Source: a virus (taxonomy: Duplodnaviria > Caudoviricetes). Taken from it: a stretch of DNA of 57,234 nucleotides. Shown here piece after piece: positions 42,887-57,233 of this stretch; position 1 is the first letter of the stretch; each line of letters begins with the position of its first letter. The DNA is taken from positions 1 through 57,234 of IMG/VR virus record IMGVR_UViG_3300016484_000638. One strand, given 5' to 3'. A program made the position numbers and the translations under genes. The notes beneath the pieces are model-generated. The model made no database searches. It saw nothing but the letters and a program-made list of their open reading frames with translations, and had not been told where the DNA came from.

Positions 42887-42942
42887 AATACAAATATATG
42901 AAATTATTTAATACCAAATAATTTTTTATAAATATTTTATAG

Positions 42943-43013
42943 AGGCCCCGATTGGACTTGAACCAATGTAAGCGGTTTTGCAGACCGCCTCCTAACCACT
43001 CGGACACGGGACC
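42943..43013 (-). tRNA. tRNA-Cys(GCA)
   Basis: Full cloverleaf, loop CTGCAAA, U73. Confidence 0.95.
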
Positions 43014-43020
43014 TTAAATT

Positions 43021-43098
43021 TGGTGGATCGTAAGGGACTTGAACCCTTGACCCCCGCAGTGCAAATGCGGTGCTCTAGCCAATCTGAGCTAACAACCC
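43021..43098 (-). tRNA. tRNA-Ala(TGC)
   Basis: Cloverleaf, G3.U70, encoded CCA. Confidence 0.95.
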
Positions 43099-43109
43099 AT
43101 AATAACGTC

Positions 43110-43208
43110 GATAGGACTTAACTGGAACCTCTCATTTATATCCAATCATCAATAGGTAATTAACCCATACCAGGTGCATCCCAATTTTAACTGGGAATAT
43201 ATCCTATC
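43110..43208 (-). ncRNA. Unassigned structured RNA in tRNA operon
   Basis: Closing stem GATAGGAT/GTCCTATC; CCCAGTT/AATTGGG hairpin. Confidence 0.55.
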
Positions 43209-43213
43209 TATTG

Positions 43214-43284
43214 AGCGGGTAGATGGTAACTCTCCATCTTCCTCGGTTTGGAAGACCGACGCATTAATTTTATGCTATACCCGC
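43214..43284 (-). tRNA. tRNA-Gly(TCC), non-canonical D/T loops
   Basis: Perfect stems; D loop AAAATTA; T loop AGAGTTA. Confidence 0.85.
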
Positions 43285-43295
43285 AAATTGTGGGT

Positions 43296-43393
43296 AGGGG
43301 TCTCCCACGATAGACTTAAGGTTTCGGATTATTTAACGACAATTCCTAAATGTCAACCGCCCGCATGTCCTTCACCTTGAAGCGGGAACCCCT
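43296..43393 (-). ncRNA. Unassigned structured RNA overlapping HEG 3' end
   Basis: Closing stem AGGGGTTCCCGC/GTGGGAGACCCCT. Confidence 0.55.
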
Positions 43394-44204
43394 TATGATT
43401 TTTAATTTTATTTATAATATCTAATACCTCTATCTCATATTTTTTATTTAATAAAGGTTTAACCTTAAATCTTATTAATTTATATTTTTCTTTTATTATA
43501 TTTTCTCTAATTATTTCTTTTTCATTATTACTATCATGCCATCTTTCACCATCTATTTCGACACATAGATTAAGTTTTGGAAAAAAGAAATCCACATAAT
43601 AATTATTCACCTTAAATTGTTTAATAAAATCCTCACCATTGACCAACCCTTTTAAAACTAAAAATTCATTAAAAAATTTTTCAGGATATGTTTCCTTAAT
43701 TGAAGCACATCTTTTATTAGGATGCAGGTCTGGGTTTTTTTTATATCTTTCTTTGGCTATTATACTTAATTTTTCTTTAAAGATTTTTGAATTTTTAAGA
43801 CAACTTAAAGAACAATACTTTTGTTTATTTTTTTTAACTTTTTTACCACACTCAATACAATCTGTTCTAGGTAATTTATTATTATTTGGTATATTTTTAA
43901 GTGACTCACTTATTTTAATTTTGGTGAGTTGACTTTTTATTTTACCCTTATTATTATAACTAGCAGAACAACTATTATTACAAAAATTTCTATCTCTTGA
44001 TTCTAAATCAACAAAATCTTTACCACAATTTTTACAAATAAAATTTTTATAAAAATTTTTTCTAATAGATTTAATACCTAAACGATTACATCTATTAGTT
44101 ACTGAACTAATAGTTATATTCATTTTTTCAGAAATTTCTTTATAACTAAAACCATCTTTTATTAAAGATTTCAGTTCGTTATCTTTCTCTACAATCCATT
44201 TCAT
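43353..44204 (-). mobile_element. PD-(D/E)XK (Vsr/DUF559-like) homing endonuclease with Zn fingers
   Basis: YYVDFF...VEIDGERWH; CxxC..CxxxC repeats. Confidence 0.8.
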
Positions 44205-44270
44205 ATAAATAAATATCTCAAAATGAGTTAAAAAATATTCTTGAACCTATATTTTTGGTTATAGAACTTG

Positions 44271-44344
44271 AGAGGGTGATCGGGATCTAACCGACTCTAT
44301 TCCACATTGGCAATGTGGTGCACCAACATTTATGCGTCACCCTC
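44271..44344 (-). tRNA. tRNA-Gly(GCC), non-canonical elbow
   Basis: CCACA-TTGCCAA-TGTGG; T loop TTAGATC. Confidence 0.85.
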
Positions 44345-44350
44345 TTGTGT

Positions 44351-44443
44351 GGGTGGAGTCAGACGCGTTCTGTCCACCGAGACCGTAACTTGAATTTCTT
44401 CAGAGGTTAACGACACAAGATTTGTGGGAACCGCACCCCACCC
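44351..44443 (-). ncRNA. Unassigned multi-arm RNA
   Basis: GGGTGGGGT/ACTCCACCC closing stem; three internal hairpins. Confidence 0.55.
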
Positions 44444-44474
44444 TGAACTTGTACTTCGTTCTTTTAAGCGTTTT

Positions 44475-44551
44475 TGGCGGTCCTGATGGGACTCGAACCC
44501 ACGATCTCCGCCGTGACAGGGCGGCGTCCACTCCATCTGGACTGCAGGACC
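44475..44551 (-). tRNA. tRNA-Asp(GTC)
   Basis: Cloverleaf, G73, CCA. Confidence 0.95.
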
Positions 44552-44586
44552 TTTTATATCTTTATTAAGAAGTTCAGAAAAATGTT

Positions 44587-44721
44587 TTAAAAGTTAGCAT
44601 CTTTTTTTTTATTTGCTGAAATTTTTCTTTTTATCTTCTTTATTTTTCTTTCTAACCAATTGGTATGCTTTTTCCTTAATATATCCTTACTTGACTCTAA
44701 TTTACCTGTTAATACTTCCAT
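44587..44721 (-). CDS. 44-aa Lys-rich ORF inside tRNA operon
   Basis: MEVLTGK...KKDANF*. Confidence 0.4.
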   Translation of the reverse strand: MEVLTGKLESSKDILRKKHTNWLERKIKKIKRKISANKKKDANF

Positions 44722-44747
44722 TCTTAATTTCTCTCTCTTTATTTCTG

Positions 44748-44828
44748 TGGGAGAAGAGGGACTCGAACCCCCAAGGCTTTCGCGACAGATTTACAGTCTG
44801 CTGAGCCAACCAATTGCTCAACTCTCCC
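44748..44828 (-). tRNA. tRNA-Tyr(GTA)
   Basis: Cloverleaf with variable arm. Confidence 0.95.
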
Positions 44829-44834
44829 TTATTG

Positions 44835-44909
44835 TGTCCCCGATAGGGTTCGAACCTATGACCCCTCCATTAAAAGTGGAGTGCTCTAAACCAACTGAGC
44901 TACGAAGAC
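44835..44909 (-). tRNA. tRNA-Lys(TTT)
   Basis: Cloverleaf, loop CTTTTAA. Confidence 0.95.
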
Positions 44910-44929
44910 GTTATTAATATTATGACAAT

Positions 44930-44963
44930 AAAAAAACCCCAACTAATTCTTTAGTCAGGGTTT
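44930..44963 (-). terminator. Attenuator terminator of tRNA operon A
   Basis: AACCCTGACTAA-AGAA-TTAGTTGGGGTTTTTTT just upstream of tRNA-Lys. Confidence 0.85.
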
Positions 44964-44990
44964 CATGTATAATTTTATATTTATAAAATA

Positions 44991-45080
44991 CTATACAGAC
45001 ATATTCTGACCATTTAAGATGTAATCACATCCTTTGTCGGCTTTCGCGTCACAACCTTTATATGTTTTATAGTTTTTCAT
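44991..45080 (-). CDS. Leader peptide A: MKNYKTYKGCDAKADKGCDYILNGQNMSV
   Basis: Lies between promoter and terminator; K/Y/G/C/D/A rich, matching downstream tRNAs. Confidence 0.85.
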   Translation of the reverse strand: MKNYKTYKGCDAKADKGCDYILNGQNMSV

Positions 45081-45109
45081 GTTTATAATATTGTTTATCT
45101 TTAAATATG

Positions 45110-45142
45110 ATACAAAGATAGTAAAAGTTTTACAATTGTCAA
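45110..45142 (-). promoter_or_regulatory. Promoter of tRNA operon A
   Basis: TTGACAATTGTAAAACTTTTACTATCTTTGTA. Confidence 0.75.
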
Positions 45143-45159
45143 GTATTTTTATTTTTTTT

Positions 45160-45570
45160 TTAATTTTTTCTCCCCCACGAGTAATGAACAATGGTTCCGT
45201 TTATATATTCTTTCCAGTATTTATTCCATGGTCCAGAAAATAATAGGGTACAACAACCATTACTATTAGCAATTCTATGGTAACAATTTCTTGGGAAGAA
45301 TTTTATAAACTGGGTTCTTCTTTCAACATGGAAATCACCAGTTAATTCATCATCCAATATGTGTTCATCATATTCACCAAACAATTTAAAAGATAGTGCG
45401 TTAAATGCATGTGTATGAAACCTATCTTGTGGTTTGTTTGATTTATGAAAATAAAAAAATATGATTGAACCCAACCATTTACACTCAAATACTACAAATT
45501 GAGTTACTTTCTGCTCACCAAACTCAAATCTATTGAGTCTTAAAAATGAAATATAATCCGTCTTTATCAC
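45160..45570 (-). CDS. Cupin-like protein
   Basis: FHTHAF...GEYDE...YHRI...TLLFSGP. Confidence 0.65.
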   Translation of the reverse strand: MIKTDYISFLRLNRFEFGEQKVTQFVVFECKWLGSIIFFYFHKSNKPQDRFHTHAFNALSFKLFGEYDEHILDDELTGDFHVERRTQFIKFFPRNCYHRIANSNGCCTLLFSGPWNKYWKEYINGTIVHYSWGRKN

Positions 45571-45596
45571 GGAATATAAAACTAAGGTTTTTTAAC

Positions 45597-46385
45597 TTAA
45601 TGGTCAAGTTTTAAATTAAAATATTCTCTTCCATCTATAATTTCTGGCTCGTCAAAATTTTCACTACGTTCTACATATCTTTCTGCATCACCCATTAAAT
45701 CATACCAATCTCTAACCTTATTTCTTTTATTAGATGCACCAAAAACCACCCTACCATTTAAACCTATCACTAAATGGTGTAAATATTTGTAAGTTAAAAA
45801 AGGTTTTAAAGTTACTATACCACCTTGAGCACAATAAAGACCTTCATCAGAATTTAATAATGTATTTAAAACAACATTATATTCGTCCTCTGTAATCAAT
45901 GGTTCAAATTTAATTATCTTGTTTTTAAATGATGGGTTAGTGTTAATAATCCAATCTAAATCTTCAGATTCATTTAATCTATCGTTAAAAATGTGATTTA
46001 ATTTATATTGTATATATGGTTTGCCTTCTAAATCTTTTCTAACATCAAGATATTTATTTTCATAAAATATAAGTTTATTATCACCATAGCCAATTCTTCT
46101 TACATTATACTGATTTATAAAAAATCTAATATATGCTGACCCATTTTTAGAATATTTTAAAAGACTTCTAATAAATTGTTGCCTACTATCACCCATTCTC
46201 GTATTTACTTGGGTAAGCATGTCGTATAGCTGACCCAGTTCTGATTCAGTGGTTGATTCATCTAGCCACACAACAACTAATGGATCATCAGTCATAAACG
46301 GGTTAGGTGCCTCCATATTAATCCAATCAAAATCATCCATTTCTTCTTCTTTTATAATTTTTTTAATATTCTTTCTTAATATCAT
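45597..46385 (-). CDS. ILKE/DW-tag two-module protein
   Basis: KKIIKEEEMDDFDW; internal LNESEDLDW. Confidence 0.7.
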   Translation of the reverse strand: MILRKNIKKIIKEEEMDDFDWINMEAPNPFMTDDPLVVVWLDESTTESELGQLYDMLTQVNTRMGDSRQQFIRSLLKYSKNGSAYIRFFINQYNVRRIGYGDNKLIFYENKYLDVRKDLEGKPYIQYKLNHIFNDRLNESEDLDWIINTNPSFKNKIIKFEPLITEDEYNVVLNTLLNSDEGLYCAQGGIVTLKPFLTYKYLHHLVIGLNGRVVFGASNKRNKVRDWYDLMGDAERYVERSENFDEPEIIDGREYFNLKLDH

Positions 46386-46500
46386 TTAATCCTTTTTTTC
46401 TGTTGCATATTTAATACCCATAATAGTTCCAACTATTGAAAAGGAAAACTACCATCAAAAATACTGATGAATATAATAACAATTTACGGTTTTTAGTCAT
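46386..46500 (-). pseudogene. Probable deleted/frameshifted small membrane gene
   Basis: MTKNRKLLLY.. in one frame; SFSIVGTIMGIKYATEKKD* in another, abutting next ATG. Confidence 0.35.
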
Positions 46501-46537
46501 ATTAATAAATATGCTAAAAAATTATAAACAGAAAAAG

Positions 46538-47263
46538 TTATTTTTTTTTGTGTTTATAATTTAAGTCTTTAAAGCACAGTATTGAGATTAATAAACCCAT
46601 AAATAATAGAATTAAGGCTATAGTCTTATATGTGTCACCAGAAGTGGATAAATTAAAATTCCATAAACCGTGATAAGTTACAGATGTTACAAACCCGATT
46701 AAACTAAAAATAAAAACTTTAAAATTTTTCTTTTTATTCACAAGTATACTGAAAATACTTTTACCGTTAGGTGTTGGTTTTTTTAATTTACTTAATCCGA
46801 TCCAATAACCAAATATAAATCCAGAAATGATATGGGCAATGGTTGATGTTACGGATCTAATAGGTATAATATATGGACCATATGATAAACCATATTGTAT
46901 GTTTTCAAATATAGAAAAACCTAAACCAAGCATACCAAAATATATCATAGTACTAAGTGGATGGTTTTTATCACTAATTAAATAAGATAATATAACAAAG
47001 GCAATTAATTTAGATAACTCTTCTTTTGTCGCAGTAACTAAAAAGTCATTATAAAAATGATTATTCCCCAACATTACCCAACCTGGTAAATTTAAAAAAA
47101 TAAAACTCAATATTAAAACTGATAATATACCACCAAAAATATATTGTATAGTTTTAGAAAATTTTATTGTACCATAAGGTAATATTGTGTAAAGTATTAA
47201 AATATAAGCATAAGCCGGCATTAATGATAATATAGTACAAACTGTTAAAATTGTTAAATCCAT
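46538..47263 (-). CDS. PrsW-family intramembrane glutamic protease
   Basis: EELSK, GFSIFENIQY, AH, YHGLWN; multiple TMs. Confidence 0.85.
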   Translation of the reverse strand: MDLTILTVCTILSLMPAYAYILILYTILPYGTIKFSKTIQYIFGGILSVLILSFIFLNLPGWVMLGNNHFYNDFLVTATKEELSKLIAFVILSYLISDKNHPLSTMIYFGMLGLGFSIFENIQYGLSYGPYIIPIRSVTSTIAHIISGFIFGYWIGLSKLKKPTPNGKSIFSILVNKKKNFKVFIFSLIGFVTSVTYHGLWNFNLSTSGDTYKTIALILLFMGLLISILCFKDLNYKHKKK

Positions 47264-47279
47264 ATACAAATATAATGAA

Positions 47280-47741
47280 TTAAAATTGTGAAACAAAATT
47301 ATCCATAACCATAGTGAATTCATTAATTTCATTAAATTCATAATCAATCTGAAAATCCCGTAAACTACAACCAATTAAAATCCATTGTGATATTACAGAC
47401 CCTAAAGGATCTATTGACATTAACGTTGCGTTAATTTTTCTACCGTAAATATTGTCTTGGTAGTTAACCCAACTATTTAAATCTCCACTTCTGATAACCT
47501 CTCTAATTATTACTCTGATAGGATTAATCTCCATAAGGCGAAAATTTCTACCCATTTCACCAAAATAACCATAATCAAAATTAGAACGACTTATTCTAGG
47601 TATCTCACTATCAACAAAATATTCACCATACGGACCTAAATCTAAAATATACCTATGTCTGTACATAGGTTCTTGTAAAATTCTTAATCCAGTTCGTTCT
47701 TTAAAATTATTTAATTTCTTAATATATTTTTTTGGTTGCAT
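47280..47741 (-). CDS. Tail-tube (gp19)-like divergent protein
   Basis: EP..HRYIL; 'SIDPLGSVISQWILIGC'. Confidence 0.45.
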   Translation of the reverse strand: MQPKKYIKKLNNFKERTGLRILQEPMYRHRYILDLGPYGEYFVDSEIPRISRSNFDYGYFGEMGRNFRLMEINPIRVIIREVIRSGDLNSWVNYQDNIYGRKINATLMSIDPLGSVISQWILIGCSLRDFQIDYEFNEINEFTMVMDNFVSQF

Positions 47742-47849
47742 GTTATAACATTAATTTATTTTTTTAGATTATAAATGATATTTATTTATAAATATTAAAA
47801 TGGAGGATGATGTTTTTGATGATACTTTTTGGCACCCAGACCAATCTTT

Positions 47850-48365
47850 ATGAAAAAATTTATTAAAAAAATATTAAAAGAAGATTTTGATTGGATAGAT
47901 GATATACCGTCATTTATTGAAATCACTGAACCAGTTACTCAAAGTAACCCCAAAGACATATTTAGATTATATTGGACAAATGAACACTACACTGGTGACT
48001 ATGGTGTATGGTCTGACGATTGGTATGGTTTTAAAAATGATTCTAATGGTGTTAATAATTTAACAAGATATGTTAAAATATTACAAAATGGTTTAGATGA
48101 CAGAACCAATGAATTTGATTTTGATTTATTAGTAGATTTATATTTTAATCAAGGTCATAGTTATATAGCCACTGATTTTATGAAACGTGAACTTTCTAAT
48201 GAGGACTACACAGATAAAAAACATATTTTATCTCAAATGTTAAAAGATGATTTAAATGACTTGGGTATTTTCAACTGGGGTGGTGGTGTTACATTAGAGA
48301 GGTGGAAAGTAACTTACTTCGACGAAAATGGTATAGAGTTTAACACAAAAATCAATAATATATAG
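47850..48365 (+). CDS. ILKE/DW-tag protein
   Basis: MKKFIKKILKEDFDW. Confidence 0.7.
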   Translation: MKKFIKKILKEDFDWIDDIPSFIEITEPVTQSNPKDIFRLYWTNEHYTGDYGVWSDDWYGFKNDSNGVNNLTRYVKILQNGLDDRTNEFDFDLLVDLYFNQGHSYIATDFMKRELSNEDYTDKKHILSQMLKDDLNDLGIFNWGGGVTLERWKVTYFDENGIEFNTKINNI

Positions 48366-48439
48366 TACACCTGGGAGGATTTGAACCTCCAACCTTTTGT
48401 TCCGTATACAAACGCTCTGTCCAGTTGAGCTACAAGTGT
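48366..48439 (-). tRNA. tRNA-Arg(ACG)
   Basis: Cloverleaf, loop ATACGGA. Confidence 0.9.
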
Positions 48440-48443
48440 GTGG

Positions 48444-48505
48444 GGTACACAAACACGGGAAATGTCGACCACTTCCCTGACTCTCTCGTCTTAGTTAGGT
48501 ATACC
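48444..48505 (-). ncRNA. Small structured spacer RNA
   Basis: GGTATAC/GTGTACC closing stem; GGGAAGTG/CATTTCCC hairpin. Confidence 0.45.
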
Positions 48506-48512
48506 TTTTAAG

Positions 48513-48596
48513 CGGAAAGCAGTGGCCCTGATCCACATACAGTTTCCCGTACCAACAACTTAGCAGGTTGTGCCTACCCTGGTAGATTTACTTTCC
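48513..48596 (-). tRNA. tRNA-Ser(GCT), 8/4 fold
   Basis: GGAAAGTA/TGCTTTCC, T stem GTGG/CCAC, loop CTGCTAA, G73. Confidence 0.8.
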
Positions 48597-48604
48597 ATTA
48601 ATTG

Positions 48605-48678
48605 CACGCCTGGATGGATTCGAACCACCAACACTCGGATTTGGAATCCGATGCTCTACCAATTGGAGCTACAGACGC
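48605..48678 (-). tRNA. tRNA-Trp(CCA)
   Basis: Cloverleaf, loop TTCCAAA. Confidence 0.95.
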
Positions 48679-48688
48679 GTTTATAAAG

Positions 48689-48762
48689 TAGTTATGGAGG
48701 GAGTTGAACCCCCGACCTTTTGAGTATCAGTCAAATGCTCTAACCAACTGAGCTACATAACT
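48689..48762 (-). tRNA. tRNA-Ile(GAT)
   Basis: Cloverleaf, loop CTGATAC. Confidence 0.95.
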
Positions 48763-48816
48763 ATTGTAAGACTATCTAAACTCCAAATGAGAACTTCGTC
48801 TTTTTTAGTTTTTTAG

Positions 48817-48903
48817 CTGATGGGGTGGGATTCGAACCCACGGTGGAGTATAACTCACCAGATTAACAGTCTGAACCCTTCGGCCAACTCGGGACACCCA
48901 TCA
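48817..48903 (-). tRNA. tRNA-Asn(GTT) with long variable arm
   Basis: TGATGGG/CCCATCA-G; loop CTGTTAA; 16-nt variable arm. Confidence 0.85.
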
Positions 48904-48917
48904 TTATTATTTTTTAG

Positions 48918-49000
48918 CGGAAGACGAGGGAATCGAACCCCCAAAGCTTTTACACCCAGCCGCTTTCAAGGCGGTGTCCTCGTCCATTCGGGCGCCTTCC
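48918..49000 (-). tRNA. tRNA-Ser(TGA)
   Basis: Loop CTTGAAA, variable arm, G73; can fold 8/4. Confidence 0.85.
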
Positions 49001-49012
49001 GTATTTTATTTG

Positions 49013-49084
49013 AGCCATAAGTCTGAATCGAACAGACGACCTCTTCCCTACCAAGGAAGTGCTCTGCCTCTGAGCTACAAACAC
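49013..49084 (-). tRNA. tRNA-Thr(GGT), chimeric with broken acceptor stem
   Basis: Loop TTGGTAG; 5' strand GTGTTTG identical to that of tRNA-His. Confidence 0.7.
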
Positions 49085-49089
49085 CATTT

Positions 49090-49731
49090 TTATTTTCTAC
49101 CTTTAACCCAATTTTCATTTAAGTAGGTTTCAAGGTCTTCTTTTTTAATCTTTTTGTTGATACCATCTTTAGTTATCCAACATGTACCGAATTGACTGTT
49201 TGTTTCACCAACTCCAGTACCTTTTCTTATTTCAGACATCAACTGTTTTGTTTCTTCTGAATGAGTTTTACCATTCCAATCATAATTAACATATCTATCA
49301 ATTTTACCTTCTTCATATGCTTTTTTAATCGATTTAGACAATGTATCACTTTTTTTCTTAACCCATTCTGGGTCTTGTCTTAAAAGCTTTTGTTTTTCAT
49401 TTGATTTAATCACATTTAATTTTTGTTGTTCCGAGCTAAACCCACCAGTACCACCTTCTCTAAGGTTCATACACATAGGGTTTTCCACTAATTCTTTATT
49501 AACAATTTCAATCTCTCTAAGAACTAACTCTTCTCTTGTTGGTGAAAACTCCAGTATTTCTTTAGTATGGTTTTCTACACCATATTTTCTAATTGAATAT
49601 CTAAGTCGTTTACCACTACCCATATAATTATCTTCTAAGTTATACGTACTATGCATCCCAACATAGTATCTTCCAGTTACATTACATGTTGTTTTATAGA
49701 TGTAATGAATATTTCTTTTTTTTCTTGCCAT
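49090..49731 (-). mobile_element. GIY-YIG (Seg-like) homing endonuclease
   Basis: YIYKTT..YYVGMH..YMGSG..CMNL..GG; NUMOD3; SQFGTCWIT. Confidence 0.85.
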
Positions 49732-49791
49732 TTTTACTTCTTTCTAAATAAATATCTAGAAATTTGTAAAAAGTACAAAAAAGTTTAAGAG

Positions 49792-49866
49792 GGTGAATGG
49801 TGGGAATCGAACCCACGACCTCTTGAACCACAATCAAGCACTCTAACCAACTGAGCTACAAACACC
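49792..49866 (-). tRNA. tRNA-His(GTG)
   Basis: G-1, C73, loop TTGTGGT; two U.U mismatches in acceptor stem. Confidence 0.9.
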
Positions 49867-49872
49867 ATAAAT

Positions 49873-49908
49873 AAAAAACCCGACTAGTTTTGAATTAGTC
49901 GGGTTTTT
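49873..49908 (-). terminator. Attenuator terminator of tRNA operon B
   Basis: AAAAACCCGACTA-ATTCAAAAC-TAGTCGGGTTTTTT just upstream of tRNA-His. Confidence 0.85.
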
Positions 49909-49928
49909 ATAATCTTAGATGAGTAATG

Positions 49929-50030
49929 TTACATTCCTGTACCACCTTCACAATTATACGTACCCGACACATGGTGACTATTGCGTCCCCAATTCGAAAT
50001 CGAAATCATATGTACATTAATTGTTTTCAT
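49929..50030 (-). CDS. Leader peptide B: MKTINVHMISISNWGRNSHHVSGTYNCEGGTGM (not in ORF track)
   Basis: Lies between promoter and terminator; T/I/N/H/S/W/R rich, matching downstream tRNAs. Confidence 0.85.
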   Translation of the reverse strand: MKTINVHMISISNWGRNSHHVSGTYNCEGGTGM

Positions 50031-50047
50031 CTTGTTTATAAATATAC

Positions 50048-50079
50048 TACAAATATAGTAAAAGTTTTTTAATTGTCAA
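50048..50079 (-). promoter_or_regulatory. Promoter of tRNA operon B
   Basis: TTGACAATTAAAAAACTTTTACTATATTTGTA. Confidence 0.75.
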
Positions 50080-50080
50080 T

Positions 50081-50548
50081 TTATTTTTGACTTTTTTTAT
50101 CTTCAGGTTTTAAAGAAATGATTAAATCTCTAATTTTAGCGGCATCTTCATATTTTTCTTCCTGGATTGCCTTATTAAGTTTAGACTCCAATAATTTAAC
50201 TGTGTCCATTTCTTGATTTCTTTCCCTACCTTCTGGACCAAAAAAGTTTTTCTTATAATATCTATAGTTCCTAGAACCATCTGGTGAAGACCAATTTTTT
50301 GATTCCCAAGAACCGTTATCATCTAAACCTTTATCTTCGTTAAATTCGTTAGGCATTTGTCCAAAGAAGTTTTTAATAAAACTATCCTCATCCATAGGTT
50401 TCATAAACCCAAACCTACTATTCATATCTGGTTGACCGTACATATCTCTCATAAAGTTATTCATTCCAGACTGATACATGTTTAAAATTCTGATAAACTC
50501 TTTTCTAAATTCATCATCACTCATGTTATTAAATCCAAATTCTTCCAT
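50081..50548 (-). CDS. UvrB/UvrC-motif protein
   Basis: LNKAIQEEKYEDAAKIRD. Confidence 0.75.
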   Translation of the reverse strand: MEEFGFNNMSDDEFRKEFIRILNMYQSGMNNFMRDMYGQPDMNSRFGFMKPMDEDSFIKNFFGQMPNEFNEDKGLDDNGSWESKNWSSPDGSRNYRYYKKNFFGPEGRERNQEMDTVKLLESKLNKAIQEEKYEDAAKIRDLIISLKPEDKKSQK

Positions 50549-50593
50549 ACTTTTTTTTATTATAAATATAATACAGAATTAAATTTTGTCAAT

Positions 50594-50832
50594 AAAAAAC
50601 CCTAGCAGTTTCTGTTGATCAAACAGTCTTACTAGGGTGTGATAATGGTTATAAGGTCGAACAAGTATGTCACGTCTGACAGATATTGTAGCGGGTCCAA
50701 TTTCCCAACATCTAAAAAGACCATCTAAGTGAGCGGATCTTACGGGACGCCCGATGGTTCTTGGCCTGCAAATACTATCTACAGGGGGGGGTGTAAAAGA
50801 CCTATTCTGGTACGCTGTTCTTATGGGTAGCG
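50594..50832 (-). ncRNA. Putative ~240-nt multi-hairpin RNA
   Basis: ATATTTAT motif upstream, several GC-rich hairpins, terminal ACCCTAGTA..TGCTAGGGT-TTTT. Confidence 0.55.
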
Positions 50833-50871
50833 TAATAGGTACTATTATTTTAATAATAAATATATTAAAAT

Positions 50872-50930
50872 GAGATAAACACGGGCCTAACTAGCCATCT
50901 TTCAGGAAAGGCCCTTCTAGTGTCTACCTC
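50872..50930 (-). ncRNA. Hairpin after tRNA-fMet
   Basis: GAGGTAGACAC/GTGTTTATCTC and GGGCCT/AGGCCC. Confidence 0.45.
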
Positions 50931-50934
50931 TTAG

Positions 50935-51009
50935 TAGCGGGGACAGGATTCGAACCTGTGATCTCTAGGTTATGAGCCTAGCGGGTTGACCAGCTACCAC
51001 TACCCCGCG
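50935..51009 (-). tRNA. tRNA-Met(CAT), initiator-like
   Basis: CGCGGGG with C1 x U72 mismatch; loop CTCATAA. Confidence 0.9.
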
Positions 51010-51507
51010 ATAATATTCTTTCATACGCTCTGATTGTTCATCTCTTTTAGATTTATCAGACCATCTTTGTTTTGCCTTTTCAGCTATCTTCTTTTTAGTT
51101 TCTTCAGATATGCCTCTTCTTCTATTAGACTCTGAAATTTTTTTTCTAGTTTCTTCTGAATGCTTTCTACCTTTTTGCATTTCAGAAAGTTTCTTTTTAG
51201 TTTCTTCTGAATGTTTTAAACCACTAAAATGTGGTCCACCCTCACCACCTAAACCAGTATTGTAAGTTTTATTTGTAGAAATAAATAATTCATTTACGAT
51301 TTCTTTTTCTTTATCATTCATTTCTTTTTCATTATCAAAAATGTACAATACTTCTTTTTTAAAATTTTCTTTACCGTATTGTTTTATAACATTTTTAATG
51401 ACTTTCCCACTACCAAAGTAGTTATCATAAGGATTGTTTGTTTGGTGCTTTCCAATATATGTTTTATCATTTAATTTATTAGTCACCTTATATATTGTAT
51501 ATTTCAT
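50965..51507 (-). mobile_element. GIY-YIG (Seg-like) homing endonuclease reading into tRNA-fMet
   Basis: TIYKVTN..YIGKH..YFGSG; C-terminus RGVVVAGQPARLIT is the tRNA 5' half. Confidence 0.85.
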
Positions 51508-51535
51508 ACATATAAATATACGGTAAGTAAATAAA

Positions 51536-51565
51536 CTAACGAGATACCAACTTCTCCACCCCACA
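51536..51565 (-). pseudogene. Stranded 5' half of a tRNA-fMet allele
   Basis: TGTGGGGTGGAGAAGTTGGTATCTCGTTAG. Confidence 0.75.
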
Positions 51566-51573
51566 ATATATTG

Positions 51574-51866
51574 TATCTAAGGAAGGATTCGAACCTCCAC
51601 GGACTTAATCAAAACTAGGTTTTTTTCAGTCCATACGTTTTACAAGAATTTAAGGATTTAATCTCATCTATTAAATCTATCTATCTTTATAATTATAAGT
51701 TGTCACGTTTGGGTTAAAGAGTAACGTAACCAAACCTCTTAACTAGTCTAATTTAGAGACCAATAAGGTTAGCTAATCCTAAAGTCTTTTTGGGTTTTTA
51801 TAGAACTCCCAATCTAACCTTAGACTCTCTTCAAACGTAAGCGTCTACCAATTCCGCCACTTAGAT
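51574..51866 (-). ncRNA. tRNA-scaffold RNA with ~190-nt insertion in place of anticodon loop
   Basis: ATCTAAG/CTTAGAT-A; TGGCGGAATTGGTAGACGC; TACGTTT/AAACGTA; GGAGG-TTCGAAT-CCTTC. Confidence 0.75.
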
Positions 51867-51882
51867 ATTTTAAAAAACTTTA

Positions 51883-52542
51883 TTACAAAATAGTCCTACC
51901 CATTGACCAACCAACTGGTATGCTATCTGATTTTTTTATTTTTTTATTTTCAAATCCATTAGTTATCCAACAAGTCCCAAATTGGGAGTTATTTTCTCCT
52001 TTTTGTTTGATTGAATTTTTCTCACCTATCTTTTTTTTAGATTCTTCTTTGTGTTTTTTACCATAAAAGGTACCTTCTTTAATTTTTAAATTTTTTTTTA
52101 ATCCAAAACTAATAGATTTTTTCCAAAAATCAACCCACTCACTATTATTTTCTCTAAGAAATTTCATAGTTTTATGACTATTTTTTGTTGCTTGTTTTTG
52201 AGACAAGTTTAATGACTCAATAAATTTTTTTCTATGTTCCTCACCACTAAAACCACCATCACCACCTAATTTAAGGTTCATACAAAGTTCTTCAGATAAT
52301 AATTGTTCATTAACAATTTCTTTTTCTCTTTTTTTTAATTCTTTTCTGTTTTTTAAAAACTCAAGAATTTTTTTTGTATGATTTTCCTTTCCATGATAAT
52401 TAATAGAATACCATAATCTCTTTCCACTACCTAAGTATCCATCTTCCAAATTATCAGTAGAATGCATTCCTATGTAGTATTTCCCATTTACATTACAAGT
52501 TGTTTTATAAATGTAATGATATTTCTTTTGCCTTCTCGCCAT
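51883..52542 (-). mobile_element. GIY-YIG (Seg-like) homing endonuclease, paralog of 49090
   Basis: YIYKTTCNV..YYIGMH..YLGSG. Confidence 0.85.
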
Positions 52543-52590
52543 ATCTATACTTTATATATAAATATGACGAGAAGGTACAAAAGTTCCAGG

Positions 52591-52700
52591 TACACAAGGA
52601 AGGATTCGAACCTCCAAAACCTACTTTCATCGCCCCTAGGGGAGATTACTTTTCGGTTAGAGTTGTTACACTCCGTGTTTACCAATTTCACCACTTGCGT
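52591..52700 (-). ncRNA. tRNA-like RNA
   Basis: ACGCAAG/CTTGTGT-A; Leu-type D arm; GAGT-GTAACA-ACTC 6-nt loop; variable region >40 nt. Confidence 0.7.
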
Positions 52701-52711
52701 ATATATTAAAA

Positions 52712-52927
52712 AAATGACTTACCTATTACAACACCCGTACTCGTCAGACTTAGTGAATTCGTCTTTCAGAGGTCTGTACTTGTTTCTTTCCGATTTGATT
52801 TCTAATCCTTATCAGTTATAACTTTTCTCCCAGTGTCCGTATTGTTTGTACAACTATCCGTCCCCCAAGGGTTGGGTCATTCGCGTGAAGGTGAGCTAAC
52901 CATCTTATTGAATAGGTTAAATCATTT
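52712..52927 (-). ncRNA. Putative ~215-nt structured RNA
   Basis: Closing stem AAATGATTTAACCTATT/AATAGGTAAGTCATTT after promoter and boxA-like motif. Confidence 0.6.
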
Positions 52928-52934
52928 TTATGTT

Positions 52935-52944
52935 TTCAAAGAAC
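52935..52944 (-). promoter_or_regulatory. boxA-like motif
   Basis: GTTCTTTGAA. Confidence 0.5.
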
Positions 52945-53005
52945 GTTTTCTTTAATTGTTTAACAAATATAGTAACTTTTTTCTGATTAGTCAAATATTT
53001 TTTAA

Positions 53006-54115
53006 TTAAAAATTCATTTTATAATTAGAAACATATGTAGGTAACTGATCAAAAGAAATCTGATATTGTTTAATAGGTGTGGCCCATAAACTTTGTTTAT
53101 ATTCGTATTGGTTTAATAAAAGTGTTTTATTTCCATAGTTTATATTCCTAATAATCCATTTAATATTATTATTAGGGTCCTCTTTAATGTATTGATTCGT
53201 ATAGTGTCTGTCTAATTTAAACCCTAAAGATTCTATTAAATTAATGAAATCTTTATAAGGTTTCAAAACACCCTCTTCATCTAAAATTTCTTCTGCTTTA
53301 TCTAAAAATTCATTAAATGCATCAGCAATTTCATCTTCAGCACCAGAAAGATCCCATTCTTGGTAAAATCCATCATACCAGTTTTCATCAATTAAAGTAC
53401 TTGATGTTATTTTTAAAATATCAGTTAGTGATACTATATTTTTTTCATGTAATTTAAAAATTTCTGTCATAGAAATTTTAATTACAATCTCACCATTACG
53501 TAATTTAAAAGATGAGTTAATTTTGTCTAAAATAGATGAAAAATGTGAACCACTACTCAACCATCTATTTTTTTGTATCTGATAACCTATAATATCTAAA
53601 TAACGAACACGTAAATCGTCAAATAATTTTTGTAATGGTTCATATTTTAAAACTGCTTTAACACTATTCATATCGTCATCAGCGAAAGCAGAAAAGTTAG
53701 TGCCAGGTGATGTTACATCTAATATTCTTTGGAATCTTTCTTTTTGGTCATCGTTGATTTGGTAGCCAGAATAATCGAACTCCTCATAGTCAAAGTCATA
53801 ATAATCACCATTACCGTCATAATTAGGACCATATGTTAAAAATGGTTCAAGATAACTTTGGTCGTCCTCATTAATATCAGAAAAATCTACCCAATCTTCA
53901 TAGTCTAAAACAAATGTTATATTATCGTCATTTATATTAACTTGACAATCACTACCTGAGTTAAAACATATGTCATCATCATTAAAGTAATTACCTGTGG
54001 TAAAAGGGTTTACATCACTAACCCAATCCCAGTCATCTTTATGATATTCACTTTCTAAAGATTCTCTAATAACTTTTTTAATAATATTTTTTGATAGAGG
54101 TTTTTTAAATTTCAC
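53006..54115 (-). CDS. ILKE/DW-tag protein
   Basis: IIKKVIRESLE..DDWDW. Confidence 0.7.
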   Translation of the reverse strand: MKFKKPLSKNIIKKVIRESLESEYHKDDWDWVSDVNPFTTGNYFNDDDICFNSGSDCQVNINDDNITFVLDYEDWVDFSDINEDDQSYLEPFLTYGPNYDGNGDYYDFDYEEFDYSGYQINDDQKERFQRILDVTSPGTNFSAFADDDMNSVKAVLKYEPLQKLFDDLRVRYLDIIGYQIQKNRWLSSGSHFSSILDKINSSFKLRNGEIVIKISMTEIFKLHEKNIVSLTDILKITSSTLIDENWYDGFYQEWDLSGAEDEIADAFNEFLDKAEEILDEEGVLKPYKDFINLIESLGFKLDRHYTNQYIKEDPNNNIKWIIRNINYGNKTLLLNQYEYKQSLWATPIKQYQISFDQLPTYVSNYKMNF

Positions 54116-54155
54116 AATAATAAATATGTTTATTGTATAAATATTTTAAAAACCA

Positions 54156-54404
54156 TTAAAACGCTACTATTTGTTCTTCTTCATTAAAGTATTTTTGTTT
54201 TATTATATCGGTATTGAATTGGAATTCATCTGCGAGATTGCCTTCTGACCCATCTTTAATATTTTCTTCGTACATAATACCGTTAAAGTAGGCAACAATC
54301 TCATCCTGAGTTTTACCTTCAAGTTCTGGATAATCCTCCAAATTAATCTCAATCGGTCCGTAAGATTCGTAAACCGAATAAGTTTTAGTCATATAAAGTT
54401 TCAT
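54156..54404 (-). CDS. Hypothetical protein
   Basis: ORF. Confidence 0.6.
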   Translation of the reverse strand: MKLYMTKTYSVYESYGPIEINLEDYPELEGKTQDEIVAYFNGIMYEENIKDGSEGNLADEFQFNTDIIKQKYFNEEEQIVAF

Positions 54405-54416
54405 AAATATATTTTT

Positions 54417-54581
54417 TTATTTTAATACCATGTATTTAACACCATCAACAATTTTGACCATGTATTTTCCTTGATCTTTTGTTTTGTTATTTGAACGTTT
54501 TGTAGACCTTGCAGTCTTTGTGTTCTTTTCTGTTTCACCATACTTGTTAGTGATAACTTCTTTCATTGAAAATCTTTCCAT
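54417..54581 (-). CDS. Small hypothetical protein (not in ORF track)
   Basis: MERFSMKE...GVKYMVLK* after TATATTTG. Confidence 0.55.
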   Translation of the reverse strand: MERFSMKEVITNKYGETEKNTKTARSTKRSNNKTKDQGKYMVKIVDGVKYMVLK

Positions 54582-54613
54582 AATTTTTATTTTTTACAAA
54601 TATAACAATTTTT

Positions 54614-54892
54614 TTAGAAAATTTTAGGTGGTACTTTAAAATTATTAAAACCTGGTTTAACTTTTAGATTATCGTACTTTTTGTATTTTGAATAAACGTT
54701 AGCCCAATAATTGACACCTTCAGGTGTTTTTCTAAATTCAAAAGAAATACCAATAAACCCCATCCAACCTAGAAATTCTAACTCTAAGAATTCCTCTACA
54801 GAATGGTGAAATTTATTTAATGAATTAAAGTTAACAATCCATTTAGATTGTTCTTCCTCATTCAACCAATTAAAGTAATCTTTACCTTTCAT
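54614..54892 (-). CDS. Hypothetical protein
   Basis: TPEG..YW motif. Confidence 0.6.
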   Translation of the reverse strand: MKGKDYFNWLNEEEQSKWIVNFNSLNKFHHSVEEFLELEFLGWMGFIGISFEFRKTPEGVNYWANVYSKYKKYDNLKVKPGFNNFKVPPKIF

Positions 54893-54910
54893 AAGGCAAA
54901 TATAATAAAA

Positions 54911-55699
54911 TTATTTTGATTGTTGTTCTTTGTCGGCTTTATAAAGTGTATAAATGTTTTTAAATAACATTTCTTTAGCTTCTGGTGTCTCACCTTGTTC
55001 TATATACTTATTAATGAATTTAACCAGTTCTATTTCTTTACCTCTACTTAATTTTGATTTATAATCCATTACATCGTAGATACTCATAAAATAAAAACCA
55101 TTTAAATTAACTGAATCTTTTAGAATTGTTCTATCATCTCTAACAGTAAAATCATTTGTACCTTGGACTTTAGCTATTTTAGGATCCCAATAAGTAAAAA
55201 CTTCCATGTCTTCTTTTATTAAACCCAAACCATTTTTACCTAAACCAGGCCTATATATTTTACCACCAAAATCTTGCCATTGTTTTTTAAATCTCTCAAC
55301 AACTTTTGGCACATTTTCTTCACCTATAGCTTTACCAATCTTTTTTATAAATTCAGAATCAGTAGTGTAGTTTTTATATAAATTTTGCCAATCACTCTCA
55401 TCTGGAACTATGATATCTAAATCACCAATATCCATAGGCCAAGTTCTATCGTCTATTTCATTTAGAGCTTTTAACAACATAGGGTTTTTAAATAACCTTG
55501 CTGAACCAGCAATAAAATATTTACGTTCAGAAGGTTTAATGTTAAAAGCCTCAAAGATTAATACTCTAGATTTATTTAAAAGGTCATTTAATTTTGTTGG
55601 GTCAGCCTCTTGTAAAATATCAGCGTTAGACAATATCTCATCCAACTTTTTCCAAGCCTTTTCAACCATTAGATCATTATATATTTCAGTTAATCTCAT
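54911..55699 (-). CDS. Nucleotidyltransferase-like protein
   Basis: IAGSARL...IGDLDII. Confidence 0.6.
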   Translation of the reverse strand: MRLTEIYNDLMVEKAWKKLDEILSNADILQEADPTKLNDLLNKSRVLIFEAFNIKPSERKYFIAGSARLFKNPMLLKALNEIDDRTWPMDIGDLDIIVPDESDWQNLYKNYTTDSEFIKKIGKAIGEENVPKVVERFKKQWQDFGGKIYRPGLGKNGLGLIKEDMEVFTYWDPKIAKVQGTNDFTVRDDRTILKDSVNLNGFYFMSIYDVMDYKSKLSRGKEIELVKFINKYIEQGETPEAKEMLFKNIYTLYKADKEQQSK

Positions 55700-55727
55700 A
55701 ATTATATTCTATCTATGTATCTGGTTT

Positions 55728-56048
55728 CTAAGTTGTAGTTATATTTTTTGGGTAATTAAGGAGTAAATCAAAATTAACAGGGCCTATTCTATAACTGTTA
55801 ACATAACCATCATCAAATCTAACTTTAACCCACCAATTACCGTCCCCCATCGGTATCTTATATAACTCTATTATTGTACCCTCCTTAGAATATTCTACTT
55901 GCCAATTATACTTAGATTCAGGGCTAATTTTAACCCTCATATCGACAGAGGCAATATCATGTGTGACAACATTAATATCATCGTCCATACCAATAAATCC
56001 CCAGTCTTCCAGGGATTCATTTAGTATTTTTCTGATTAATTTTTTCAT
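55728..56048 (-). CDS. ILKE/DW-tag protein
   Basis: MKKLIRKILNESLEDW. Confidence 0.7.
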   Translation of the reverse strand: MKKLIRKILNESLEDWGFIGMDDDINVVTHDIASVDMRVKISPESKYNWQVEYSKEGTIIELYKIPMGDGNWWVKVRFDDGYVNSYRIGPVNFDLLLNYPKNITTT

Positions 56049-56100
56049 ATTTATTATTTAACAGGTTACCCCATCAGTAATAAATATCATTAAAATTATA

Positions 56101-56292
56101 TTAATCTTCTTGATTATTATTTTTTTCCTTTAGGTCTTTGGACCCTTTTACGTGTTGTGGTTCAAAACAACAGTGTCTACAACCACTACCACAACAAGTA
56201 CCACGTTTTTTATGGTATCGTTCAGTTAAAACAATAGCCCCATTCTCTAGGTAATAATCTTTACCCTCTTCAAATATAAAATTCTTATTCAT
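56101..56292 (-). CDS. DUF5522-type Cys-rich protein
   Basis: DYYLE..TE.YH.KRGTCCGSGCRHC. Confidence 0.75.
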   Translation of the reverse strand: MNKNFIFEEGKDYYLENGAIVLTERYHKKRGTCCGSGCRHCCFEPQHVKGSKDLKEKNNNQED

Positions 56293-56794
56293 TTTTAAAT
56301 CCTAAATATTGTTTCCAATCATTACTAATTCTATTTATTTTTTCTACAAAATATAGATAGGAAGGTCTGAAAGGTTTATGTCTCATGGTTAAATTATACT
56401 CTGATAAAAACTCATCAACATCTTTACTACATTTTCTAACATTACAAATACCACAACAAGTAACCAGATTTTCCCAAGTATTAGGCCCACCTTTAGACCT
56501 TGGAATAACGTGATCAATGGTTAAATCAGTTGTAACACCACAGTAAATACATTGATTATCATCTCTTTTAAAAATATTTTGTCTAGATAAATGAACCTTC
56601 TTAAATGGTAAAACAATATATTTCAATAAACGAATAACCGTTGGCCGAATATAAGATTTTTTATCCGTCATTATAGGGTTTTCTGACTCGTGAGTCACGA
56701 CTTCAGCCTTACCTTTAAACACTAATTTAAACCCTTTTTGTAGTGTTGTCACATTAATTGGGCTGTAGTCCATATTTAGTACTAACACTTTCAT
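56285..56794 (-). CDS. HNH endonuclease (McrA-like)
   Basis: VLVLN..P; RD..CIYCG..LTIDHVIPRSKGG..WENLVTCC..CN. Confidence 0.9.
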   Translation of the reverse strand: MKVLVLNMDYSPINVTTLQKGFKLVFKGKAEVVTHESENPIMTDKKSYIRPTVIRLLKYIVLPFKKVHLSRQNIFKRDDNQCIYCGVTTDLTIDHVIPRSKGGPNTWENLVTCCGICNVRKCSKDVDEFLSEYNLTMRHKPFRPSYLYFVEKINRISNDWKQYLGFKNE

Positions 56795-56824
56795 AAGACT
56801 TTTTATTTATAAATATTATTTAAC

Positions 56825-57100
56825 TTATTTAAATTTGAATGACCTAAGATTCAAAAACATCGGATACAAATTAGGCTCATCCAACCTAGTTAATCTCCTA
56901 TGTGGTACATTTATATTATTGGTAATCACCATAAGTTTTCTTTTACCTCCAGCATCTGCTTCATCTAGATTAATTCCATAAGTCGTGAAGCCAAATCTAT
57001 CTTTACTAGACATATAGGCAATGGTACCAGTCATACCAACCCAAATATCTTTTTTACGACCCTCTTCAATTCTTACCCTAGTACCAATTCTATAATACAT
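56825..57100 (-). CDS. Hypothetical protein (SH3/KOW-like)
   Basis: IGTRVRI..GMTGTI. Confidence 0.55.
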   Translation of the reverse strand: MYYRIGTRVRIEEGRKKDIWVGMTGTIAYMSSKDRFGFTTYGINLDEADAGGKRKLMVITNNINVPHRRLTRLDEPNLYPMFLNLRSFKFK

Positions 57101-57159
57101 ATGTCATTTAATTTTATATAAAATATAACCCCCCAAATAAATGGAGGGTTATTTAATTG

Positions 57160-57233
57160 TAGGGATAGTAGGAATTGAACCCACGACCTTAACGATATAA
57201 GCGTTCTGCTCTCACCAACTGAGCTATATCCCC
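57160..57233 (-). tRNA. tRNA-Ile(TAT)
   Basis: Cloverleaf, loop CTTATAT, A73. Confidence 0.85.

Follow-up and report, generated by a model that had tools for sequence, protein, structure and literature searches.

The IMG/VR virus record IMGVR_UViG_3300016484_000638 (Duplodnaviria; Caudoviricetes), analysed here over all its 57,234 nucleotides (nt) and called the window, carries on its minus strand an operon of transfer RNA (tRNA) genes beginning with tRNA-His. The operon is preceded by a compact leader, unit B (Table 1). In the direction of transcription, unit B consists of a promoter, an open reading frame (ORF) of 33 codons and an intrinsic terminator, which is followed after 7 nt by tRNA-His. 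Since the terminator lies between the promoter and the tRNA genes, transcription of these genes from promoter B must read through it; a promoter scan found no site between 49873 and 49865. The terminator was missed by a consensus terminator scan because its loop is longer than 8 nt. Leader ORF B begins 19 nt after the TATATTTG box, with A at positions -3 and -6 relative to the start codon and no other ATG within -21 to -1. All elements lie on the minus strand as described in the original prediction, a reading of the letters of this DNA which had placed a short, unannotated leader ORF upstream of the genes for His-Thr-Ser-Asn-Ile-Trp-Ser-Arg. Unit B is probably a functional ribosome-mediated (leader-peptide) attenuator of the trp/his type whose codons are matched to the tRNAs of its own operon.

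The codon content of leader B follows the operon. As had been claimed, 15 of the 18 residues at codons 3-20 are T, I, N, H, S, W or R; over codons 2-20 the count is 15/19 (binomial P=1.2e-4 against the composition of the long ORFs of the window), compared with 2/19 for the amino acid set of a second tRNA operon in the window, operon A. Two of the 325 window ORFs (ATG start, at least 20 amino acids, six frames) reach 15/19, and leader B is the single maximum, with 14, once Thr is left out of the set. The match extends to the isoacceptors, in line with the proposed fit of codon choice: all 15 checkable codons are readable by operon anticodons, against 11.4 expected from synonymous usage. In the long ORFs of the window, TCG accounts for 2.6% of the Ser codons and CGC for 1.2% of the Arg codons; in leader B, three of the four Ser codons are TCG (P ~7e-5 for TCG usage alone, binomial on window frequencies) and the sole Arg codon is CGC. 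As read from the sequence, Ser(TGA) is matched by TCG and Ser(GCT) by AGT, and the five operon anticodons called at the default threshold of ARAGORN are all represented.

Thr is the exception in leader B. The misfit between its Thr codons and the damaged, chimeric tRNA-Thr(GGT) had been noticed before and is explained by two circumstances. One is that ACA falls in a recurrent N-terminal motif, MKTIN; a search for stretches starting with MKTINV returned 31, namely 29 ordinary or unrelated ORFs and two true leaders. The other is an insertion. Contigs from three other public runs join position 49007 to 49784 with 17 other letters between, so that the homing endonuclease and the chimeric Thr gene are absent in those strains. 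By this comparison, the chimeric Thr gene came in together with a homing-endonuclease insertion not present in other strains, and Thr was therefore probably never part of the sensed tRNA set. The operon also holds a tRNA with an Asn anticodon (GTT) of 87-88 nt and a Ser/Leu/Tyr-type build (48816-48903, minus strand), and the same kind occurs in the uncultured phage LR745206.1 (L004, 20077-20163). Leader B contains AAT codons alongside this long-armed tRNA of ambiguous charging identity.

Unit B can adopt two mutually exclusive structures. In the minimum-energy fold without the terminator 3' arm, GTCGGGT (49968-49962) and TATAAT (49958-49953) pair with ACCCGAC (49904-49898) and ATTATA (49913-49908), so that GUCGGGU...UAUAAUU faces AGAUUAUA...ACCCGAC; the complementarity that had been pointed out between GTCGGGT and the terminator arm, with its TATAAT/ATTATA extension, is thus formed in a transcript that lacks the 3' arm. 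The complete leader folds into the terminator in its place, and the 3' part of segment 2 is then paired with codons 3-7, a candidate segment 1 and putative anti-antiterminator. The full leader folds at -44.8 kcal/mol (z=-3.7), and none of 200 shuffles is as stable. The antiterminator duplex has -13.4 kcal/mol, compared with -9.0 ± 2.0 for shuffles.

A twin of this leader, unit A, directly adjoins the tRNA-Lys gene at 44909. Leader A has 17 of 19 codons in the set K, Y, D, G, A, C of its own operon (P=1.9e-7) and 2/19 in the set of operon B; it is the single maximum among the 325 window ORFs, the runner-up scoring 11. Promoters A and B share 80% identity over 77 nt, and a 32-nt pattern common to both occurs exactly twice in the window and in none of 100 shuffles. 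The folds of unit A, with and without the 3' arm, behave like those of unit B. When leaders were compared with the terminator arms of the 30 units assembled below, the own arm ranked first for leader A and for leader B alike. Operon A also contains, between tRNA-Tyr and tRNA-Asp, a Lys/Arg-rich ORF of 44 amino acids (44587-44721, minus strand).

Table 1 Features of units B and A and of their operons in the window
Feature	Position	Strand	Remarks
Upstream gene	stop at 50081	-	155 amino acids; precedes promoter B
Promoter B	50050..50079	-	TTGACA (50079-50074), 16-nt spacer, TATATT
-7 box reading of promoter B	50057-50050	-	TATATTTG, TAnnTTTG type
Leader ORF B	50030-49929	-	33 codons and TAA; translation MKTINVHMISISNWGRNSHHVSGTYNCEGGTGM
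Segment 1 candidate B	50010..50024	-	codons 3-7 (ACAAUUAAUGUAC); partner in the full-length minimum-energy fold: GUACGUAUAAUUGU of segment 2
Sensor stretch B	49971..50012	-	codons 7-20 (H M I S I S N W G R N S H H); 12/14 codons cognate to operon tRNAs
Segment 2 B	49952..49968	-	antiterminator 5' strand, GTCGGGT-ACG-TATAATT, codons 21-27; from the fold without the terminator 3' arm
Segment 3 B	49896..49913	-	ATTATA-AAA-ACCCGAC(TA); common to the antiterminator and the terminator 5' arm
Intrinsic terminator B	49873..49906	-	11-base-pair stem (AAACCCGACTA / TAGTCGGGTTT), 9-nt loop, T6 tract, -14.6 kcal/mol
Operon B (putatively regulated)	48365..49865	-	tRNA calls (ARAGORN, Rfam) and one ORF
tRNA-His	49865-49791	-	
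GIY-YIG homing endonuclease ORF	49731-49090	-	
Chimeric tRNA-Thr(GGT)	49084-49013	-	5' 15 nt identical to tRNA-His; acceptor stem unable to pair
tRNA-Ser(TGA)	49000-48917	-	lowered ARAGORN threshold needed
tRNA-Asn(GTT)	48903-48816	-	long variable arm, 88 nt
tRNA-Ile(GAT)	48762-48688	-	
tRNA-Trp	48678-48604	-	
tRNA-Ser(GCT)	48596-48512	-	lowered ARAGORN threshold needed
tRNA-Arg(ACG)	48439-48365	-	
Twin unit A	44930..45142	-	adjoins tRNA-Lys (44909) directly upstream
Promoter A	45142-45115	-	
Leader ORF A	45080-44991	-	translation MKNYKTYKGCDAKADKGCDYILNGQNMSV
Terminator A	44963-44930	-	
Operon A	from tRNA-Lys 44909	-	Lys-Tyr-Asp-Gly(GCC)-Gly(TCC)-Ala-Cys

Related units were collected with a fixed rule: the 150 nt ahead of a tRNA gene had to contain a hairpin of -9 kcal/mol or lower with five or more T, and an ATG-initiated ORF of 12-60 codons had to end no more than 110 nt from that hairpin. 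The tRNA clusters of LR745206.1 were located with the Rfam tRNA model, and the regions upstream of them were then inspected. Applied to the window and to the tRNA regions of LR745206.1, LR756502.1 and LR756504.1, the rule returned 22 sites, 20 of them with an ORF; the remaining two are ordinary terminators, one after a 110-amino-acid gene (L007) and one with a weak hairpin (L025). A further 10 distinct units came from 36 IMG/VR stretches and lie in six contigs, after two duplicate rows had been dropped and an internal ATG had been chosen for one unit. The resulting set of 30 units covers the window, three phage genomes of 630-640 kilobases (kb) and the six IMG/VR contigs.

Across the set, what a leader encodes agrees with what lies downstream of it. 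The leader MTTSFQQQQQQQINRTD precedes four Gln genes, and MKTIAMIIRMRIIRPKMLG, with three AGA codons, stands before Arg(TCT), Ile and Met. Glu, Ala, Ile, Val and Gly genes follow a leader beginning with MKTVNTNIAIVEIAVIGGAEEG; MKTINNTSKSSSRSSSMSEIRLYS, containing CGC and CGA, is followed by Arg(ACG) and Ser; and the leader starting with MKNLNNISIAVIGNGAGAI, with three ATA codons, precedes Ile(TAT) and Gly(TCC). The summed z of leader-operon pairing is 80.2, compared with 1.3 ± 8.2 for permuted pairs, and none of 200,000 permutations reaches it. With one representative for each of 13 non-homologous classes, the value is 53.5 against 2.4 ± 6.5 (again 0/200,000). The signal is confined to the reading frame of the leader and is absent in frame +1 (-2.3) and frame +2 (-14.5). 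Counted by codon, operon anticodons can read 204 of the 225 codons in the leaders (185.8 expected, z=4.9), as in the pairs CGN and Arg(ACG), AGA and Arg(TCT), and ATA and Ile(TAT). The coverage of the operons is nearly complete as well: of the 109 distinct anticodons in the operons, 104 can read a codon of their own leader (0.96 on average versus 0.49 ± 0.06 for permuted pairs, 0/100,000).

Homologous leaders, such as those for Glu/Tyr or for His/Phe/Trp/Lys, conserve their composition and not their peptide sequence. An instructive case is the His/Phe/Trp leader of LR756504.1, whose unit is without Lys tRNAs. Its sensor holds one Lys codon, as opposed to three or four in the three homologues with Lys tRNAs in their units; in LR756504.1 these tRNAs sit elsewhere, behind a separate KKKK leader. 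The comparison named in the original prediction, of leader codons with the tRNA sets of relatives, therefore speaks for it: leader composition follows the downstream tRNAs over the 30 units, and the leader without Lys tRNAs has lost sensor Lys codons.

The complementarity between leader and terminator is also specific to each unit. Duplexes of leaders with their own terminator arms average -9.61 kcal/mol, compared with -6.99 ± 0.35 for permuted pairs of the 30 units (0/100,000). In 20 of 20 units the best partner of the terminator 5' arm lies at codons 14-31, just after the cognate codons, and in 12 of these 20 the antiterminator beats 95% of its own shuffles. Start sites are likewise conserved among the 30 units, with A at -3 in 26, A at -6 in 14 (A or G in 28), A at -12 in 24 and no second ATG within -21 to -1 in any; a TAnnTTTG box occurs within 130 nt upstream of the ATG in 21 units, versus 5.5% of shuffles. 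PMC6847099 describes the same translation determinants for Flavobacterium johnsoniae, an organism without Shine-Dalgarno sequences.

The effect of a ribosome on these structures was approximated by masking a footprint of 30 nt at each codon and folding the transcript up to segment 3, an equilibrium sketch and not a kinetic treatment. In this model, segment 3 is in general sequestered while the A site lies in the sensor stretch and freed while the ribosome covers segment 2. For 20 units, the mean probability that segment 3 is sequestered is 0.56 at the cognate codons and 0.33 at the last eight codons (Wilcoxon P=1.3e-5), with a margin above 0.15 in 11 units. Five of the 20 match the classical four-segment logic of trp/his-type attenuators, segment 3 being free without a ribosome (P<=0.11) and sequestered only when a ribosome is stalled in the sensor stretch. 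In unit B, the probability is about 0.6 with the ribosome at codons 1-16 and about 0.2 at codons 18-29.

If unit B is an attenuator, plentiful cognate aminoacyl-tRNAs would allow the leading ribosome to pass the sensor codons and move onto segment 2 while the polymerase makes segments 3 and 4; with segment 2 covered, the terminator hairpin would form and transcription would stop. Scarcity of any cognate tRNA would make the ribosome stall in the sensor stretch and leave segment 2 free to pair with segment 3; that pairing would preclude the terminator, and the polymerase would proceed into the genes from His to Arg. The tRNAs so produced would relieve the stall, so that tRNA supply would be under negative feedback. 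In the phage and its relatives, each tRNA operon would have a leader of its own, written for its own tRNA set. The architecture, the match of codons by frame and isoacceptor and the alternative pairings are seen in the sequence and its folds; by analogy with trp/his-type attenuation, we infer that the ORF is translated, that a stalled ribosome favours the antiterminator and that the tRNAs drive the shutdown. The direction of control is the least certain of these steps. According to PMC9723704, leader-peptide attenuation has been reported upstream of amino acid operons of Flavobacterium psychrophilum, which makes it plausible in such hosts. More tentatively, and with considerable doubt, every tRNA operon of these Bacteroidetes-infecting phages may be a closed loop, in which the leader gauges decoding speed at the codons of its own tRNAs and the tRNAs are made on demand. 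In that case, demand would arise when the tRNAs of the host fall short, be it from a mismatch in codon usage, from host shut-off or from anticodon-nuclease defences that cleave host tRNAs.

Several observations weigh against the attenuator. For unit B itself, 13 of 300 shuffles form an antiterminator duplex as good as the native one, a modest margin. The masking model also leaves its default state ambiguous, as segment 3 is already sequestered without a ribosome (P=0.64), and sequesters it again (P ~0.6) with the ribosome at codons 30-34; as a result, mean sequestration is 0.52 at the cognate codons and 0.54 at the last eight. We attribute the rise at codons 30-34 to the model, which ignores the bulk of a ribosome within the 38-nt loop. 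S18, H19 and H20 lie so near segment 2 that a stall there should mask it. In the wider family, the antiterminator duplex falls within the range of more than 5% of shuffles in eight of 20 units, and two members of the Pro/Gln/Asp leader family have weak pairing between segments 2 and 3 (-2.2 and -3.0 kcal/mol). Some tRNA clusters of the relatives are without a leader (e.g. L011, L020 and L014). Operon boundaries were set by rule, and several tRNAs needed a lowered ARAGORN threshold. No RNA run among the public runs contains the window sequence, and translation, stalling and regulated readthrough are deduced from DNA. Regarding the Pro/Gln/Asp leaders (L004 38382-38477, L033, L037, L040 and L060), they share a conserved peptide tail, NYVF-T/M-IS, and this family may work through another alternative structure or through an effect of the nascent peptide. 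Nonetheless, the comparative, codon-level and terminator-arm tests together support the attenuator with codons matched to its operon's tRNAs, as originally read from the letters.

An unlikely alternative is the opposite logic, in which a ribosome close behind the RNA polymerase suppresses the terminator and a stall permits it, giving positive feedback or a licence to express. All 20 units indeed have their stop codon at a constrained distance of 19-33 nt upstream of the terminator arm, the last sensor codons of unit B abut segment 2, and a terminator a few base pairs behind a gene is repressed by translation according to the abstract of PMC4824070. The distance of 19-33 nt, however, exceeds the reach of a terminating ribosome of the usual footprint. 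Moreover, the opposite logic needs no segment 2, yet the leaders specifically complement their own terminator arms, and the five units in which segment 3 is free by default need a stalled ribosome for the pairing of segments 2 and 3.

It is similarly improbable that the leaders are general sensors of translation capacity or of amino acid starvation of the host, with a codon match that merely reflects host-limiting codons. Host tRNAs read the same codons, and classical trp/his attenuators respond to charging and not to tRNA amount. A general sensor would not be expected, however, to differ between operons of one genome while covering nearly all anticodons of the respective operon, nor to use phage-rare codons such as TCG and CGC that fit particular isoacceptors.

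There is little to recommend an RNA element that works without translation, for instance a T-box-like leader or another leader that binds tRNA, in which the ORF would be incidental. A switch between terminator and antiterminator also defines riboswitches and T-boxes, and positions 49866-49971 gave a sub-threshold match to rnk_pseudo, an unrelated leader family (28.7 bits against a gathering score of 55). With the exception of rnk_pseudo, no T-box or other leader family matched at E<=1; the codon match is found in the frame of the ORF only, with about 14 codons serving up to seven different tRNAs, and start context and stop placement are conserved. Finally, a chance ORF or a bona fide small protein beside the terminator of the upstream gene is hardly credible: although leader B is a short ORF that had not been annotated and a second window ORF equals its raw count, promoter B sits after the stop of the upstream gene and before the terminator, chance is excluded by the tests of pairing, codons, coverage and frame on 20-30 units, and homologous leaders keep their composition and not their peptide sequence.

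Leader-peptide attenuation is well known from trpL, hisL, thrL, ilvL, leuL and pheL of Proteobacteria, which are likewise short ORFs rich in regulatory codons between a promoter and the regulated genes. They likewise have an exclusive antiterminator whose upstream strand lies just 3' of the regulatory codons, and the possible pairing of segments 1 and 2 in unit B would be a further likeness. The thr and ilv leaders carry mixed codons, a situation termed multivalent attenuation. In contrast to all these leaders, unit B would regulate tRNAs instead of enzymes, and the sensed signal would be the RNA output of the operon itself. The phage units further differ in covering up to seven tRNAs in a stretch of 14 codons with isoacceptor-specific codons, and in being phage-encoded with several bespoke copies per genome. 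Rfam scans of the window gave no covariance-model match to the amino acid leader families (His, Trp, Thr, Leu); the resemblance is therefore one of mechanism and not of sequence family. Another known system is the pheM leader of pheST in E. coli, which also attenuates a component of the translation apparatus serving the sensed codons. There, however, the product is a protein, a single amino acid is sensed, the gene is cellular and the tRNA is not the regulated product.

T-box riboswitches resemble the phage units, as proposed here, in sensing the status of specific tRNAs and in choosing between terminator and antiterminator upstream of translation-related genes. They differ in binding an uncharged tRNA through one specifier codon and the conserved T-box motif, without translation, whereas unit B has an in-frame run of codons with a start and a stop, and probable Bacteroidetes hosts. 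No T-box was matched in Rfam at E<=1 within 42000-57234, nor at the gathering score in the whole window. As to phages, the tRNA cluster of T4 is similar in being interrupted by an endonuclease gene (the GIY-YIG homing endonuclease SegB) and in its small stable RNAs; to our knowledge, it has no leader-peptide attenuator. Leader-peptide attenuation of tRNA genes is not known elsewhere either, and a full-text literature search that reached mostly abstracts and few subscription journals found no report of it. The class of mechanism is known; what appears to be new is the kind of product under control, the tailoring of each leader to several tRNAs and the occurrence in phages.

In bacteria, control of tRNA genes is known at the level of their promoters, and the tRNA clusters of phages are usually treated as passive supplements to codon usage. 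If unit B acts as proposed, the tRNA output of a phage would be regulated by decoding demand, and the leaders would be direct sequence evidence that phage tRNAs relieve codon-specific limitation. A textbook mechanism would then cover a product of a new kind, an RNA acting back on the sensor that controls it. Should the tentative closed-loop view be correct, it would be the first case of tRNA genes under translational attenuation and would supply a compact natural collection of biosensors for specific tRNAs, from whose codons the decoding by odd phage tRNAs could be read. Being small, modular and specific to a tRNA set, the units are candidate parts for the sensing of tRNA availability. They also represent unannotated small ORFs, and their codon content can help to assign doubtful tRNA genes and operon boundaries.

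Units also occur outside the set of 30. In 40 kb examined of LR756503.1 there is one, in which the leader MNFRIINMIQEQMQQIQNLIGGTISY precedes tRNAs for Met, Gln, Ile and Glu. The cultured Cellulophaga phage phi4:1 has two ATG-initiated units by the rule. One leader, MKIQRLHLQELEQPIISGGTGV, precedes Pro, Glu, Gln, His, Leu, Leu and Arg; the other, starting with MKTNYCTYNNSNWSFSYDTGS, precedes Tyr and then Ser, Asn, Trp and Phe. A third leader, missed by the ATG-only rule and found by eye, is the annotated gp075, which starts with TTG, ends in KKIKVQLTKTGITVIDKTKGARAYLGDTVIG and lies before Ala, Lys, Ile, Gly, Met, Asp, Thr, Val, Arg and Met. In the phi4:1 record KC821632.1 the leaders are found at about 87065-87133, 87989-88108 and 89771-89869. 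The first leader region of phi4:1 is 99% identical in phi17:2. Because phi4:1 and C. baltica are a cultured pair, the idea is directly testable. Four tRNA-rich, non-Bacteroidetes phages were screened over their tRNA regions: the rule gave no unit in Bacillus phage G, Sphingomonas phage PAU or Salmonella phage SKML-39, and in Vibrio phage D479 it found one terminator with an ORF of 18 amino acids, which was left unscored. Two crAss-like phages gave none. In this small sample, such units seem restricted to some phages whose hosts are probably Bacteroidetes.

The window has a G+C content of 29.7% and an estimated completeness of 20%. Its nearest named relative is LR745206.1 (634,780 base pairs), with 55.5% amino acid identity over a protein of 735 residues, and the window is accordingly a fragment of a very large phage. 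Its promoters contain TAnnTTTG boxes, which we take to be the -7 element of Bacteroidetes promoters; the assignment of the window's own host is at most probable. An exact search of viral contigs for the promoter pattern shared by units A and B gave no match. The 155-amino-acid protein upstream of unit B has no relative in viral contigs and two in metagenome contigs, one without an adjoining tRNA operon (L057) and one a short fragment (L058); a PHROGs search of the neighbouring proteins assigned it no function. One diverged Logan contig shows 24 differences from the window over 49869-50029. A scan of genome contigs, aimed at leaders of this kind before the chromosomal tRNA operons of Bacteroidetes, gave just one actinobacterium and one cyanobacterium.

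Further candidates in the window were examined and set aside. A third leader before the tRNA-like gene at 52700 was considered, as a promoter and about 230 nt of non-coding DNA are present there; no matching ORF was found. Likewise, no attenuator was found upstream of the tRNA-like genes at 3796 and 15989. A transfer-messenger RNA at the edge of the region starting at 42000 scored 14 bits in the Rfam scan and was not confirmed at the gathering score.

Other elements of the window and its relative are recorded here in their own right. Besides the endonuclease of operon B, tRNA genes are interleaved with further GIY-YIG-like and other endonuclease-like ORFs (51883-52542, about 51010-51564 and 43353-44204, all minus strand), one of which overlaps the 5' end of tRNA-Met. 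In the window, tRNA-Met is followed by about 330 nt of non-coding DNA (50597-50930, minus strand) with a strong terminator at its end and the next promoter directly after; the stretch has no Rfam match and may be a stable RNA. The region 52591-52994 (minus strand) holds a promoter of the same type (TTGACT-17-TATATT, with TATATTTG), about 230 nt without a matching ORF and a tRNA-like gene of 110 nt that carries an insertion and scores 36.7 bits as an Rfam tRNA. Odd or oversized tRNA-like genes also lie at 3493-3594, 3698-3796 and 15922-15989 (minus strand), and for one of them ARAGORN calls an anticodon of 4 nt; none is preceded by an attenuator. In LR745206.1, small hairpin RNAs with the common loop AACGATTCAGATACAAA lie downstream of promoters of the same type (L004, about 19200-19290; L006, about 11540-11640).

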